From a virus: a stretch of 64,000 nt of DNA. A program made the position numbers and the translations under genes. This document shows, one piece after another, positions 34,740-49,201 of the stretch (positions within the stretch are counted from its first letter, which is position 1; every line of letters begins with the position of its first letter). The notes below the pieces were generated by a model. It had not been told where the DNA came from and searched no databases. It worked only from the letters and a program-made list of their open reading frames with translations. Location of the stretch: the IMG/VR virus record IMGVR_UViG_3300012971_000890, one strand, 5' to 3'.

Positions 34740-35501
34740 TTATTTCCAGTCGTTGATGCGCTCAGCGAGGGCGAGCATAAGCCGTGGCAGAGCCACGCCC
34801 GAACCGTTGAGCAGGTGACATTTGACGTTCTTCCCCCCGGCCTTGGGCTTATAACGAACCTGGGCGACCTTGCTCTGGTTGTCGCCGGTGTTGGAAATGG
34901 AGGAAACTTCCAGCCATTCCTTGCCCACCAGCACTTCGATGTCGATGGTCTGGTTGGAAACGGGCGAACGGTCCTTCTCGCTCAACACGACCTGGCGGTA
35001 GTGGACCCCATGCAAGCTGTCCAGCAGGGCGCACACGTCCCCCACCATCTGGTTGTGATAGTGTTCGGACAGGTCCGGGGTGCAGATGGTGAAAAGTTCG
35101 ATCTTGTTGAACTGGTGGACTCGCTTGTACCCTTTGTCCTTCGCGCCATACGCCCCCGCCTCCTTACGGAAGCAGGGGGAATAGGCGACGTAGCGGCGGG
35201 GTAGTTCCTCCTCTTTGAAGATTTCATTGGCGTGCATCCCCACCAGGGGCGTCTCGGCGGTGGGAATCAGCAGGAGATCGTCCGTGGTTTGGTAGTAGTC
35301 GCCGTCAAAGCGGGGGAGGATGCCGGCCATGTGCCCCACCTTTTTATTCACCAGGAAGGGCGGGATGACGAACTGGTAACCCCGGTTGCGATGGAAACGC
35401 AGCATGTAATTTACGAGATTCCATTCCATCACCGCCTCGTCGCCGGTGAGGAAATAGAACTTCGAGCCGGTGGTCTTCGCCCCGCGTTCAAAGTCAATCA
35501 T
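34740..35501 (-). CDS. serS: seryl-tRNA synthetase catalytic core (lacks N-terminal coiled-coil arm)
   Basis: Class II motif 2 CFRKEAGAYGAKDKGYKRVHQFNKIE and motif 3 NGSGVALPRLMLALAE; IPTAETPL; only about 253 aa. Confidence 0.8.
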   Translation of the reverse strand: MIDFERGAKTTGSKFYFLTGDEAVMEWNLVNYMLRFHRNRGYQFVIPPFLVNKKVGHMAGILPRFDGDYYQTTDDLLLIPTAETPLVGMHANEIFKEEELPRRYVAYSPCFRKEAGAYGAKDKGYKRVHQFNKIELFTICTPDLSEHYHNQMVGDVCALLDSLHGVHYRQVVLSEKDRSPVSNQTIDIEVLVGKEWLEVSSISNTGDNQSKVAQVRYKPKAGGKNVKCHLLNGSGVALPRLMLALAERINDWK

Positions 35502-35964
35502 GGCCCGTCTCCTGCTCAGAAAGATGGGTGAAGGCCCGCAGCAAATACTCCTCCACCAGAGCGCCAATTCCGGGGCAGGTGCTTTCCTTGTTGCCGGCCA
35601 CGTTCAGGACTTCGATCTTATTGCTGACGATCCATTCGCAAAACTGCTCCACGGGCGGTGGCTTCCGCAGGTCCACGTCAAAGTACGGCTTGGCGTGCCA
35701 GCGAATGGCCTTCAGGGTACACCGCTCACCCGGCGTGTTGAAATTCACGGCGAATCGTACCGTGCCGTCCGAATCCCGCGCATTGGCCTCGGTACGGGGC
35801 GGGTACTTGTCCGTCTTCGTCTCCAGCAGGCCATATTCCTTGAGGGCCGGGTCGGGGCCGTTTTCGGTCAGATACCCAAGGGGCATCCACCCGCCCGTGT
35901 CAATTCCCTGCCTCCTGGCTGCCCGCAGGCCCGCCTGGTCCGCCCCCGTCTGGCCCCCCGACAT
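35494..35964 (-). CDS. SLOG/MoCo-carrier-like Rossmann protein
   Basis: SGGQTGADQAGLRAARRQGIDTGGWMPLGY motif. Confidence 0.45.
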   Translation of the reverse strand: MSGGQTGADQAGLRAARRQGIDTGGWMPLGYLTENGPDPALKEYGLLETKTDKYPPRTEANARDSDGTVRFAVNFNTPGERCTLKAIRWHAKPYFDVDLRKPPPVEQFCEWIVSNKIEVLNVAGNKESTCPGIGALVEEYLLRAFTHLSEQETGHD

Positions 35965-36517
35965 CACCTTCCTGACCTTCCACCTTTTTGGCATCGCGGA
36001 CCTCCTTCATGCGTTTCTGATAAAGCCGGGTTAAGTTCGCCGCACCGGCCATACCGTGGATCGGTCCCTCCACCTTGCCCACGATTTCAGCCCCAAGTTG
36101 CTTGGCAATCCACTCGTGGTCCAGTTTCTCCTTGGGCTTATCAATGACCACGATGCGGCCACCGTCAACCGCGTCGGCCACCCCGGTGATGTCGAGGACT
36201 TCCTCGCCGGTGAGCTTTGCCTCGTTCATCAGGATGGGTTTCAGCATCCGGGCGACCAAGGCGGGGTCCACCAGGGGACACGCGGTCAGTTTTTGCATGA
36301 CCTGCTCCTCGGTGCCCGGCTCGACGTATATATCCGCCCGGCGCAACGACCCTAACTGCGGATGGTCACGGAACTCGAAGGTCACACGCTTCGGCTTGAT
36401 CTCGTTCTGCACAAACTGCTCGGCATCCGCGAAGCTCGTTTCATCCCGGAAGCCCACAACCACATGCCCCGGAACAAAGGTCTGCTGCCCCTGGGGGTCG
36501 TTGACGTGCCATACCAT
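35900..36517 (-). CDS. hypothetical protein
   Basis: 205-aa ORF; Gly/Pro-rich C-terminal tail. Confidence 0.4.
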   Translation of the reverse strand: MVWHVNDPQGQQTFVPGHVVVGFRDETSFADAEQFVQNEIKPKRVTFEFRDHPQLGSLRRADIYVEPGTEEQVMQKLTACPLVDPALVARMLKPILMNEAKLTGEEVLDITGVADAVDGGRIVVIDKPKEKLDHEWIAKQLGAEIVGKVEGPIHGMAGAANLTRLYQKRMKEVRDAKKVEGQEGDVGGPDGGGPGGPAGSQEAGN

Positions 36518-36891
36518 CAGTTATTCTCCAGATTAAAGAAGAAGATTTCATCGCCGTCTCGGATCACTTCCAGCCACTTGGTATGGTGGTCGTTAATGAT
36601 CTGCGGGTCCAGCATAATTCGGAAGCCCAGGTCGAGGATCGACCGCATGAACTCCTTGGGTTCGGTCACCATCTTGACAGCGTAGGTGGCGAAACCAATT
36701 TTACTTTGCAAATGCGCCATGACCTGGCGCATGTGCGGTTCTTCCCGGAACAGCAGCACGAAGAAATTGTTGCAGTTCTCAAGCTGAATGAGAAACAACT
36801 CGTCCCGGACGACGGGCATGAGGGCGTTCTTCAGGTCAATGTTGACCTTCTTGCCGTTCCACCGGGGCGGGCCTTGCCAGGGTGCTGACAT
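36517..36891 (-). CDS. hypothetical protein
   Basis: 124-aa ORF. Confidence 0.4.
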   Translation of the reverse strand: MSAPWQGPPRWNGKKVNIDLKNALMPVVRDELFLIQLENCNNFFVLLFREEPHMRQVMAHLQSKIGFATYAVKMVTEPKEFMRSILDLGFRIMLDPQIINDHHTKWLEVIRDGDEIFFFNLENN

Positions 36892-36901
36892 TTTGAAATC
36901 C

Positions 36902-37228
36902 TCAAACCTCGATGTCCACCTTGGGCGGCTCGCGCCCGTCCTGGTCGTTGTAATACTGCGTGCCGCCGATGATGACCTCGGTGAGAATGTCTTTGTATAA
37001 GCGTCTCAGGTCACCGATGGCGAAGAAGACCTGCCGTCCCGCCTCCGGGTGGTCCTCCAAATAAGTGAGGATCGCCTTGAGACTCATGGCCAGGCCGAAC
37101 GCCTCGTCACCCCGGATGAATAGGCCAGGCCAGTCCTCTCCGACCTGGAGCGGGCCAGATTCAACTCGCCCCTGGCCGTCGTTGGGGGAAGGGAGACGCC
37201 TCACGGGCCTTGGCTGGTTGTCGGCCAT
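36902..37228 (-). CDS. hypothetical protein
   Basis: Internal ATG (MADNQ) chosen; upstream part is Arg-rich low complexity. Confidence 0.4.
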   Translation of the reverse strand: MADNQPRPVRRLPSPNDGQGRVESGPLQVGEDWPGLFIRGDEAFGLAMSLKAILTYLEDHPEAGRQVFFAIGDLRRLYKDILTEVIIGGTQYYNDQDGREPPKVDIEV

Positions 37229-37437
37229 TGCGTGTCTCCGTGTCCGGGGGTTCCTTTCTTCAGGCAGTCTGAAGATACACAATTGCCGTGGGGATCGACC
37301 TGAATGACGCCGCACCCTTCGCAGATGGTGACGCCGGCCAAACCCTGTTGCCAACTTTCCTCCGTCGTCACACCGTCCATGTCTCCCCGGTACTGCCCAA
37401 ATCGCTCGATTGAGCAGGCCCTACAGAAGTCCGCCAC
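37201..37437 (-). CDS. zinc-ribbon hypothetical protein
   Basis: CRAC..CEGCG..C..C. Confidence 0.35.
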   Translation of the reverse strand: MADFCRACSIERFGQYRGDMDGVTTEESWQQGLAGVTICEGCGVIQVDPHGNCVSSDCLKKGTPGHGDTQWPTTSQGP

Positions 37438-47949: not shown

Positions 47950-47997
47950 GTCGTCCCTGATAAAAATAGGCGGGGCCGTCCGCCCCGCCCTAAGTCT

Positions 47998-48213
47998 CTA
48001 TTCGTCTTCGTCGCACCCCACCTGCAAGTAAATCGGGTCGCAGGCGTTTTCGGGTTCGACAATTTTGAGGACGTGTCCCCCGTTGGCGATGACCTCGTGG
48101 ACGATGGCCCGCCTTGCCTCCTCGTCGCTCTCCTGTTGCTTCACTGACACATTGGCCGTTATCGACCATCCGTGTGCGTCCACCAGCGTGACGGAGAAAA
48201 TCCACTCCATCAT
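47998..48213 (-). CDS. hypothetical protein
   Basis: 71-aa ORF. Confidence 0.35.
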   Translation of the reverse strand: MMEWIFSVTLVDAHGWSITANVSVKQQESDEEARRAIVHEVIANGGHVLKIVEPENACDPIYLQVGCDEDE

Positions 48214-48315
48214 AGGATTCCCCCAAAATGGTGCTACATCGGTAAATCTCCCTTGGGCAAAGGAACGTTGCTTGCGAGGGCCGCTAAGTAAATATTAACC
48301 GCCCTCAGAGAAATA

Positions 48316-48582
48316 TCAAGAGCGGATCGAGCGCTGCGCATCTTCGAGCCAGCCCTGCTCCTTTAATCCCTGGCACTGGCTGCACAGCTTGTAGGGCGTG
48401 AAAAGGTAGTTCTCCGGCAACACTTCCGTCGCCACCCCGCAGGCACCGCAGTAGTAATACATATCGGAGCCGGCTGGCAACTTCTGGTTTTCGATGTGTT
48501 CGATTTGAGCGGCGCTCTCCACACGCTTGGCATACTGCCGGATCGCTTCTTCCTTCGCGTATTCCAGATCGGTCTTGGCCAT
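48316..48582 (-). CDS. zinc-ribbon hypothetical protein
   Basis: CGACG..CSQC; internal ATG. Confidence 0.4.
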   Translation of the reverse strand: MAKTDLEYAKEEAIRQYAKRVESAAQIEHIENQKLPAGSDMYYYCGACGVATEVLPENYLFTPYKLCSQCQGLKEQGWLEDAQRSIRS

Positions 48583-48649
48583 ATGATTGAGGGGGTTGGA
48601 GGACGACTGACGACCGACCCTAACCTTATAACGAGGTCGGGCCGGGATG

Positions 48650-49201
48650 TCAAGAAGGCAAAACGCATTTAATCTTTTTTTCAGATATGGCGTCGATCTG
48701 GCGGGTGAACTCATCCACAAGCTTGAGCAATTCCTGGTCCAAGCGGCGTTCCTCGTCCTCGGTCAAAAGCGACTTCAGCCGCCGCTTGTCCTTCTGGTGC
48801 TGCTTCTTACCTTCATGGCGAATATTGCGCATCGCCACCCGCGACTCCTCGGCCAACTTGCGCACCTGGGCGACGACTTTTTCAATCTGCCCGGAATCCA
48901 TGCGGGGCAGGTTGGCGTACACGCAGTCGTCACCGCCGTAGGTGCTGATTCCCTGGGCGTCCAGGGCCTTGCGGATGTCCTTGCCGGCTTCGCGGTCGTG
49001 GGGGCGAATGGAAACCGCGTTATGCGGTGCCGGCATGACATATGCAAGCTTGCCGATGGCCTCACTGGAGCCTTTGAATTTCACCCGCAGGCTCTCGATG
49101 AGGGTGATGGTGTCGCCGCCTCGTAAATTGAAAATCGCGTCCTTGAAGTGCGTCAAACTGCGCTCCATCTTGGCACGACAAATTTGAATTAGCTCTTTCA
49201 T
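48650..49201 (-). CDS. frr: ribosome recycling factor
   Basis: VRKLAEESRVAMRNIRHEGKK and LTEDEERRLDQELLKLVDEF blocks match RRF; ATG at 49201. Confidence 0.8.
   Translation of the reverse strand: MKELIQICRAKMERSLTHFKDAIFNLRGGDTITLIESLRVKFKGSSEAIGKLAYVMPAPHNAVSIRPHDREAGKDIRKALDAQGISTYGGDDCVYANLPRMDSGQIEKVVAQVRKLAEESRVAMRNIRHEGKKQHQKDKRRLKSLLTEDEERRLDQELLKLVDEFTRQIDAISEKKIKCVLPS

Follow-up and report, generated by a model that had tools for sequence, protein, structure and literature searches.

Cut-down and divided bacterial-type translation factors, and a candidate frameshift-gated release factor, in the DNA of a probable huge phage

Huge phages, with genomes above 200 kb, are known to encode parts of the translation apparatus. 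One survey describes up to 15 aminoacyl-tRNA synthetases (aaRSs), many tRNAs, the release factors RF1/RF2 and ribosome recycling factor (RRF) (Al-Shayeb et al. 2020, PMC7162821), and another describes jumbo phages with an archaeo-eukaryotic-type peptidyl-tRNA hydrolase (PTH2) and ClpS (Iyer et al. 2021, PMC7824862). According to these surveys, the phage aaRSs are relatives of the enzymes of the host phylum but can be told apart from them. Translation modules in phages are therefore already published and not themselves new. Here we analyze a 64,000-nucleotide stretch of viral DNA (IMG/VR virus record IMGVR_UViG_3300012971_000890; hereafter, the window), in which the new elements are an arm-less seryl-tRNA synthetase (SerRS) family, a glutamyl-tRNA synthetase (GluRS) encoded by two genes, an aspartyl-tRNA synthetase (AspRS) without the GAD insertion, and a frameshift-gated, RF1-like release factor (RF) without domain 1. 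The first two and the last hold the main interest.

The explanation we favor, and consider probable, is that the window belongs to a huge tailed phage and carries functional but structurally minimized bacterial-type translation factors, namely SerRS, GluRS, AspRS, RF, RRF, PTH2, ClpS and tRNAs. We infer the mechanisms of the cut-down factors from sequence and analogy. The genes had been named in an earlier note made from the DNA letters alone, and all were recovered at or within a few codons of the positions it gave, with scores well above chance. Profile-HMM mapping of each aaRS, one of the checks it had proposed, showed that the motifs score and that the SerRS and GluRS cores are truly delimited. 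The dense set of translation factors described there is real in its density; the genes are, however, dispersed over ~41 kb of one strand rather than contiguous, interleaved with small ORFans and 12–13 tRNAs.

The SerRS gene (34740-35501, minus strand) encodes a 253-residue catalytic core that matches Pfam tRNA-synt_2b (PF00587) with E=1e-26. The protein covers positions 147-400 of the 418 positions of the serS model (TIGR00414), scoring 255 bits, under the 301.65 cut-off. It aligns to residues 151-399 of the 425 residues of Aquifex SerRS (2dq3), indicating that the N-terminal arm is absent. Its first residue coincides with that of the catalytic domain and corresponds to Aquifex residue 151. 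The window protein thus retains the class II core of bacterial SerRS, with motifs 1-3 and the TxE serine-binding motif, and lacks the N-terminal coiled-coil tRNA-binding arm of about 100-150 residues. The earlier reading of this gene as a SerRS core without the arm therefore holds, and the boundary is not an artifact of ORF calling.

We collected the best 120 database clusters as relatives of the SerRS core. The arm-less family comprises at least ~115 clusters of 245-283 residues with 59-92% identity, on contigs of up to 673 kb. Among 29 members of the family, R112, E114, T81, E83 and R240 never vary: the arginine and loop of motif 2, the arginine of motif 3 and the serine-binding TxE residues are all invariant. 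For the core, dN/dS is 0.085. Every relative with at least 61% identity begins M-x-D-F-E-R-G-A-K, whatever gene stands upstream. The normal arm is present in phage SerRS enzymes at 43-44% identity. A tblastn search of GenBank phages returned no arm-less SerRS, only full-length SerRS at ≤41% identity, such as the ~433-residue gene product of Brevundimonas phage Kikimora.

The gene directly upstream (35494-35994, minus strand) encodes a circularly permuted YpsA protein (cpYpsA) of the SLOG superfamily (PF12694, E=1.6e-39), and its stop overlaps the SerRS start by 8 nt (ATGATTGA). We considered this ORF as a frameshifted SerRS arm and rejected the idea, as the ORF is the cpYpsA SLOG protein. The pair is kept in a near clade (loci L001/L002, L004/L024 and L023 and a 670-kb contig). 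A role for cpYpsA as universal SerRS partner was likewise rejected, as the pairing is missing in L025-L027, L110, L111 and L112. A third candidate partner, the 111-residue Zn-ribbon protein encoded downstream (34403-34738), is present in the closest relative only.

More distant loci place the arm-less SerRS beside tRNA-related genes. In two lineages (L026/L110 and L112), three to four phage tRNA-Ser isoacceptor genes lie 0.6-3 kb downstream (L026 5366-7341; L110 11366-13302; L112 11928-12816), and their length of 84-95 nt corresponds to long variable arms. In L111 (10001-17004), the SerRS gene overlaps an RF-1-domain gene that is followed by a gene with a GatB/YqeY (tRNA-binding) domain, as in an operon. 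Together with the restriction of cpYpsA to the near clade, these arrangements indicate that the genomic context of the family points to tRNA.

We consider it most likely that the SerRS core would still make seryl-adenylate and serylate tRNA-Ser, with the missing arm supplied in trans, most plausibly by a heterodimer with the host SerRS. In normal SerRS, the arm of one subunit delivers the tRNA to the active site of the other, which is what makes such a heterodimer the most plausible source of the arm. E. coli SerRS from which the arm has been deleted reportedly retains serine activation and loses nearly all tRNA charging and specificity, and the tRNA is said to bind across the SerRS dimer. Given both, a catalytic subunit that borrows an arm would be the most economical mechanism.

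Two points weigh against this proposal. From the reported behavior of the deleted E. coli enzyme, a stand-alone arm-less core should be a poor tRNA-Ser synthetase. In addition, phmmer searches with two phage arms found no separate arm ORF at E<1 in the window and eight related loci, a weak test that rests on two query arms and covers only ~10% of the genome. Seryl_tRNA_N was not among the top 25 of 56 Pfam families in a sweep of 99 predicted window proteins.

The earlier note had suggested that the truncated synthetases may have non-canonical substrates, and the arm-less SerRS may be such a case. The core might activate serine for an acceptor other than tRNA, either a carrier protein or a small molecule or nucleotide derivative handled by the neighboring SLOG protein, or might make Ap4A-type signals. 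It would then resemble truncated class II paralogues such as the amino acid:carrier-protein ligases, EpmA/PoxA, AsnA and HisZ. The family-wide loss of the tRNA-binding arm, the reported collapse of efficient tRNA charging in arm-deleted E. coli SerRS, and the 8-nt overlap with the SLOG gene kept in the near clade all fit such a role, as do the genes for a 756-residue PP-binding (carrier) protein, ThiF and ThiS that lie 2.3-6 kb downstream of the SerRS core in L111. We nevertheless regard both the non-tRNA chemistry and the acceptors proposed for it as unlikely. The motif-2 loop, which contacts the tRNA acceptor end, is canonical in length and sequence and nearly invariant, and the core is of bacterial type, whereas the known amino acid:carrier-protein ligases derive from the methanogen type. 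The same L111 locus holds the RF/YqeY operon, tRNA-Ser clusters flank the gene in two lineages, and six loci lack the cpYpsA pairing. The intact motif-2 loop and the tRNA-Ser clusters thus favor tRNA as the substrate. A family this large and strongly conserved either challenges the textbook notion that SerRS cannot recognize tRNA-Ser without its coiled-coil arm or would mean that host SerRS is hijacked through heterodimers.

The second reduced synthetase is a GluRS catalytic core (45979-47025, minus strand; start codon uncertain among 47025, 47019 and 46951) with a Rossmann fold and HIGG and KLSKR motifs. It scores 344.5 bits against the bacterial GluRS profile gltX_bact (TIGR00464), above the equivalog cut-off of 289.95. 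The core stops ~20 residues beyond the FDxxKLxWLNGxY motif, at the boundary between the catalytic and anticodon-binding domains (ABD). Its residues 25-346 match residues 2-327 of a full-length phage GluRS, P0124 (475 residues), with 53% identity. A bacterial-type class I core with HIGH/KMSKS motifs and a curated-profile match is therefore present without an ABD on the same polypeptide, as the core ends at P0124 residue 327. Truncated relatives number only three, with 99% (P0121), 85% (partial, 241 residues) and 76% (P0122) identity, and the remaining relatives, at ≤53% identity, are all full length. The locus of P0122 (L018) shows the same RRF–ClpS–GluRS core–AspRS synteny, and dN/dS for the core is 0.08.

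A complementary gene, missed by the earlier note, lies 16 kb away (29401-30147, minus strand). It encodes a 248-residue protein in which a stand-alone GluRS ABD (PF19269, E=2e-11) is fused to DUF2934 (PF11154). By BLASTP, residues 14-147 match P0124 residues 339-457, and hhalign gives the match 98.4% probability and E=6e-15; overall, the ABD protein covers P0124 residues 336/339-457/463. Six related clusters at 54-100% identity share this architecture, and dN/dS for the ABD is 0.22. We relied on profile–profile comparison here because an AlphaFold2 model of the ABD–DUF2934 protein, built from 6 sequences, reached a pLDDT of only 53, too poor for a fold search, and was not used; this counts against the assignment.

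Both halves are conserved and under purifying selection, from which we judge the core and the separate ABD to be a natural split GluRS. The accepted GluRS domain boundary separates T. thermophilus residues 1-322 from 323-468 (PMC3927822), and the phage split falls at this boundary. In the more distant phage L004, GluRS is intact (443 residues) and is followed by a separate DUF2934 gene. This arrangement suggests that the split is derived and that a rearrangement cut the gene, leaving the ABD fused to its downstream neighbor. In vitro, a free distal domain stimulates C-truncated E. coli GluRS (Dubois et al. 2009, Biochemistry 48:6012, as related in PMC4393105 and PMC3927822). By this precedent, the products of the two phage genes would probably reassemble non-covalently. 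A natural split GluRS would be an in vivo counterpart of the model of aaRS evolution in which the catalytic core came first and the anticodon domain was added later, and would offer a ready-made split-enzyme system. As a separate observation, phage GluRS cores, intact P0124 included, are without ~35-40 residues of the connective/Zn-binding subdomain found in E. coli-type and Gemmataceae GluRS.

The earlier note had described the core as GluRS/GluQRS-like, lacking an anticodon domain, and had paired it with the adjacent AspRS as GluQRS and tRNA-Asp. The absence of an ABD in cis is confirmed, at a real boundary rather than one created by ORF calling; the GluQRS identity is not. An enzyme of GluQRS (YadB) type, which would attach glutamate to the queuosine of tRNA-Asp, would accord with the missing ABD and with the overlap between the core stop and the AspRS start (ATGA), a pairing kept in the relative with 76% identity. 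This identity is nonetheless very improbable. All five GluQRS models fail (best 178.3 bits against a cut-off of 276.7), solved structures score E=5e-75 for GluRS and 6e-31 for YadB, and full-length GluRS enzymes, with 53% identity, are the closest relatives that are not truncated. Moreover, the ABD that exactly complements the core is retained in a conserved gene on which purifying selection acts, and tRNA-Asp and queuosine genes were not found in the window. The proposed grouping with YadB thus fails by profile and structure scores, and the proposed tRNA-Asp pairing is not supported.

The AspRS (44495-45982, minus strand) is a bacterial-type enzyme of 495 residues with an OB-fold anticodon domain (PF01336) and a class II D/K/N core (PF00152). 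It passes the equivalog PRK00476/NF001750 with 534.7 bits against a cut-off of 443, and its dN/dS is 0.125. It lacks the ~118-residue GAD insertion of bacterial AspRS between motifs 2 and 3. Residues 28-316 align to residues 42-315 of 4o2d and residues 317-488 to 434-606, leaving 4o2d 316-433 as the gap. The earlier note was thus right about the enzyme and wrong to call it full length. GAD-less AspRS enzymes of this single-stretch form, 467-504 residues long, are rare, with ~6-8 representatives in a database of 1.8 billion representatives clustered at 50%. In our reading, the window enzyme is a bacterial-type AspRS that has lost the GAD insertion and is probably coupled in translation to the GluRS core, whose stop its ATG overlaps.

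We next turn to the release factor, which the earlier note had listed without coordinates and which proves real. The gene (19420-20209, minus strand) encodes an RF1-like protein with PCRF and RF-1 domains that would reach 262 residues through a +1 shift. A leader ORF of 23 codons starts with ATG at 20209, preceded by the strong ribosome-binding site AAAGGAG, and ends in CTT TGA (20143-20138). The RF frame proper occupies 20139-19420, and a +1 shift joins the two. In the window, the stretch from the upstream stop to the conserved RF domain contains no start codon in frame, and RF1 homology begins upstream of the first canonical start. Three features of a prfB-type +1 site, a CUU and an in-frame stop, a functional ORF in the +1 frame and the absence of an alternative start, are therefore present in the window.

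The factor scores 179 bits against RF1 models, 110 against RF2, 25 against PrfH and 22 against ArfB. Its RF1 score is below the equivalog cut-off of 400, with model positions 1-126 unmatched. Its alignment with T. thermophilus RF1 runs through the shift site and spans residues 98-340, indicating that domain 1 is absent. Domains 2-4 are retained with the GGQ motif and a PxT-type loop (VQRVPPTE...QTS), and the recognition loop is RF1-like, with PxT, Gln and Thr in place.

To place this site in its family, we compared the RF upstream regions of 80 metagenome loci, 9 IMG/VR loci and the window, which reduce to 82 non-redundant sequences (the observation concerns loci L009-L017, L030-L109 and L114, plus the window). 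The +1-compatible register contains 60 CTT-stop sites, and the other two registers contain 1 and 0. An SD-like motif stands upstream in 46 of the 60 sites, and in 33 of them a C follows the stop. About two-thirds of the sites use UGA; UAG accounts for most of the others, with an occasional UAA. Tandem double sites occur in L010, L011/L012 and LR756511.1, and in one subgroup the site lies downstream of the GxGG motif, by 19-32 codons. Close relatives share a conserved leader peptide. We sought a link between the stop codon at the shift site and the recognition tripeptide and found none, PPT occurring with TGA 11 times and with TAG 9 times.

Two further observations were made in this family. In L097 and L105, the position of the conserved Trp in the 'GW' motif of the RF is occupied by an in-frame TGA, which suggests that the huge phages of these loci (L105 comes from a 570-kb contig) may read TGA as Trp. 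In L009, L016, L037, L071, L078 and L109, an in-frame TGA, or no start codon, is found just before the RF domain.

From this arrangement, the RF would be synthesized only if ribosomes shift +1 at CUU-UGA after the 23-codon leader, and slow termination at that stop would raise its output, in the manner of prfB. By the same analogy with prfB, the shift may sense termination capacity. Three features weigh against such control. The window's own site has no obvious SD-like element (GACTCC precedes CTT). The stop codon used appears uncorrelated with the RF tripeptide family-wide. Finally, the factor keeps RF1-type residues yet is gated by UGA; RF1 does not read UGA, so simple autoregulation does not fit. 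A 2016 review of recoding gives an RF1/UAG counterpart of prfB recoding as unknown (Atkins et al., PMC5009743), and our literature searches found no later report of phage RF frameshifting.

These observations lead us to a broader proposal, which we advance tentatively and with somewhat more doubt than confidence. Huge phages may carry a dedicated RF1-lineage factor without domain 1, gated by one or two prfB-like +1 sites (UGA/UAG/UAA), as the first recoding-controlled RF outside RF2; instead of simply regulating its own synthesis, it would sense how well the host terminates. In these genomes, the arm-less SerRS and the two-gene GluRS may work only when assembled with host or phage partners in trans. 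With an RF1-like frameshift factor of this kind, a classic form of recoding would reach a further protein lineage and use any of the three stop codons, in some genes at tandem sites; it makes directly testable how phages monitor or manipulate host termination. A point against the trans-assembly part is that the window is ~10% of the likely genome, so that a second, intact SerRS or GluRS may lie elsewhere.

Three smaller factors complete the protein set, all named in the earlier note and confirmed by Pfam. PTH2 (22653-23111, minus strand; 152 residues) matches PF01981 with E=3e-22 and 79.4 bits against a threshold of 23, and NCBIfam Pth2 with 77 bits, below the equivalog cut-off; a syntenic copy is present in the 670-kb relative. 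The ClpS adaptor (47210-47536, minus strand; 108 residues) matches PF02617 with E=1.7e-18 and 66.6 bits against 23, also below the NCBIfam equivalog cut-off. RRF (48650-49201, minus strand; 183 residues) matches PF01765 with E=2.7e-23 and 83 bits against 29.7, and scores 73.9 bits against TIGR00496, below its cut-off of 149. ClpS and RRF are both syntenic in L018, with dN/dS of 0.08 and 0.27, respectively. All three clear the Pfam gathering thresholds, with matches spanning almost the whole domain, and their scores below the NCBIfam equivalog cut-offs mark them as divergent. RRF, PTH2 and the tRNAs would keep ribosomes cycling in infection; ClpS is a protease adaptor, not a translation factor.

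The earlier note had counted at least 11 tRNAs, and the number found is 13 by ARAGORN and 12 by Rfam, all on the minus strand. Those identified by both programs are tRNA-Val(TAC) (27612-27683; Rfam 66.7 bits), tRNA-Ala(TGC) (27701-27772; Rfam 64.7 bits), tRNA-Gly(GCC) (40238-40311), tRNA-Thr(TGT) (41679-41750), tRNA-Ala(GGC) (50291-50362), tRNA-Ala(CGC) (51251-51322), tRNA-Arg(CCT) (55460-55532), tRNA-Arg(TCT) (57122-57194), tRNA-Glu(CTC) (59075-59149), a second tRNA-Val(TAC) (59164-59236), tRNA-Gln(TTG) (60231-60304) and tRNA-Gln(CTG) (60578-60650). Small ORFs lie between tRNA-Gly(GCC) and tRNA-Thr(TGT). The thirteenth, a low-confidence candidate tRNA-Ile(TAT) (26778-26850), was called by ARAGORN only and has no Rfam tRNA match even at E≤1. 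In the relative L023, tRNA-Ile(TAT) adjoins tRNA-Ala(TGC) and tRNA-Val(TAC), as in the window.

Every piece of the set has a dN/dS of 0.08-0.27 against relatives at 59-89% amino-acid identity, indicating that the translation genes are not decaying, and none of them looks, by sequence, like a decaying pseudogene. The opposite view, that the truncated and split genes are functionless remnants of a rearrangement, could draw on the intact GluRS of L004 and on the several factors below NCBIfam equivalog cut-offs. We find it hardly credible: the SerRS core, GluRS core and ABD have dN/dS of 0.08-0.22 at saturating dS, the catalytic residues are invariant, and both the integrity of the ORFs and their boundaries are maintained in over 100 clusters and in relatives with as little as 54-61% identity. 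These genes are systematically miscalled by standard annotation, as truncated ORFs that start at internal codons.

We also examined the origin of the DNA, which has a G+C content of ~58%. A megablast search with 16 kb of the window found no near-identical phage in GenBank. The same sequence was recovered in independent soil metagenome assemblies, one of them a 46-kb contig running from AspRS through PurM. The recurrence of the arrangement in independent assemblies and in related phages shows that it is not an assembly artifact, and the lineage appears to be soil-borne. Related IMG/VR viral contigs measure 0.18-0.57 Mb (182-572 kb), and a syntenic relative is a contig of 669,797 bp (JGI 3300047160) with the gene order cpYpsA, SerRS core, MVP-like, ABD/DUF2934, pyruvyl transferase, PurM, PTH2 and HNH. 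A published uncultured phage, LR756511.1 (595 kb), is a further relative. Most of the gene content of the window consists of small ORFans; HNH endonucleases, a sigma factor, genes of nucleotide metabolism, scattered tRNAs and numerous PHROG matches are also present, and the whole fits a huge phage. The jumbo- or giant-type phage origin proposed in the earlier note is thus supported by these relatives, and our favored explanation takes the window as part of a huge tailed-phage genome with relatives of 0.5-0.67 Mb.

The host is probably a Planctomycetota bacterium. The nearest cellular GluRS enzymes are those of Gemmataceae/Gemmatales, and RF relatives in a collection of 185,579 species genomes are confined to nine contigs, all in metagenome-assembled genomes (MAGs), five of the nine in Pirellulaceae/Mariniblastus MAG bins; it is the GluRS affinity and these bins together that make such a host likely. 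The same affinity and bins, and the fact that no capsid or terminase gene was identified among the window genes, could instead suggest a segment of a Planctomycetota chromosome or plasmid, with the genes as host paralogues. The near-confinement of the RF family to those nine MAG-derived contigs, the viral relatives in IMG/VR together with the published 595-kb phage, and a gene content dominated by small ORFans and accompanied by HNH endonucleases, scattered tRNAs and many PHROG matches make a cellular origin extremely improbable.

Several other genes lie outside the translation set. An 887-residue protein (30536-33199, minus strand) with major-vault-protein shoulder and repeat domains (PF11978, PF17795) has 93% amino-acid identity in relatives and a dN/dS of 0.08, and is unusual in a phage. 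A protein with an opioid-growth-factor-receptor N-terminal domain (PF04664) adjoins a stand-alone response-regulator receiver domain (42006-42521 and 42522-42935, both minus strand), and the OGFr_N gene recurs in L004 and L019. On the plus strand (5945-12829), four paralogous proteins of ~340 residues (phrog_2448) are followed by a 759-residue protein that carries two Laminin_G_3 domains, with repeated units of the peptide 'LVTQD/EVLEV' on their flanks; a role in fibers or host recognition is probable for these proteins. The sole plus-strand ORF of the translation block (49256-49795) has a signal-peptide-like N-terminus followed by His/Pro/Tyr-rich low complexity, and, with its weak coding score, may be no real gene. 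Auxiliary metabolic or RNA-repair genes also stand beside the translation set: an RlaP-family nucleotidyltransferase of an RNA-repair pathway (13287-14186), a PyrE-like phosphoribosyltransferase (17117-17653) and a PurM-like AIR synthase (24268-25230), all on the minus strand.

Finally, we compare these factors with known systems. Literature searches turned up nothing relevant on arm-less SerRS in phages or on a split GluRS. The amino acid:[carrier-protein] ligases, insect SLIMP and arm-deleted E. coli SerRS all share with the phage family a SerRS-type class II core without a functional arm. The amino acid:carrier-protein ligases descend from methanogen-type SerRS and have diverged active sites; in contrast, the phage family is of bacterial type, has fully canonical motif 2, motif 3 and serine-binding residues, and adjoins tRNA-Ser genes. 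GluQRS/YadB and engineered C-truncated E. coli GluRS likewise consist of a GluRS core without a covalent ABD, and the break point engineered by Dubois et al. 2009, as related in PMC3927822, is the domain boundary of the phage split (T. thermophilus 1-322/323-468). Unlike these, the phage split is natural, has both halves in one genome and the ABD fused to DUF2934, and is not GluQRS by profile.

Like prfB, which encodes RF2, the phage RF genes combine a CUU and an in-frame stop, often a C at +4, and a short leader ORF, and most of a class I release factor is specified by the frame downstream. An SD-like element a few nucleotides upstream, as in prfB, stands at 46 of the 60 family sites and is not evident in the window itself. 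The phage factor differs in being of RF1 lineage (PxT-type; 179 versus 110 bits) without domain 1, in using UGA, UAG or UAA as the stop, in the tandem sites of some genes, and in the subgroup whose site has moved to 19-32 codons after GxGG. It also differs from PrfH (RFH) and ArfB, against which it scores only 25 and 22 bits versus 179 for RF1, in having no RtcB partner and in keeping RF1-type decoding residues. With respect to the translation sets of huge and jumbo phages, whose descriptions, in the passages searched (PMC7162821, PMC7824862), contain no arm-less SerRS, split GluRS, GAD-less AspRS or RF recoding, the present lineage appears to be soil-borne and is linked to Planctomycetota.

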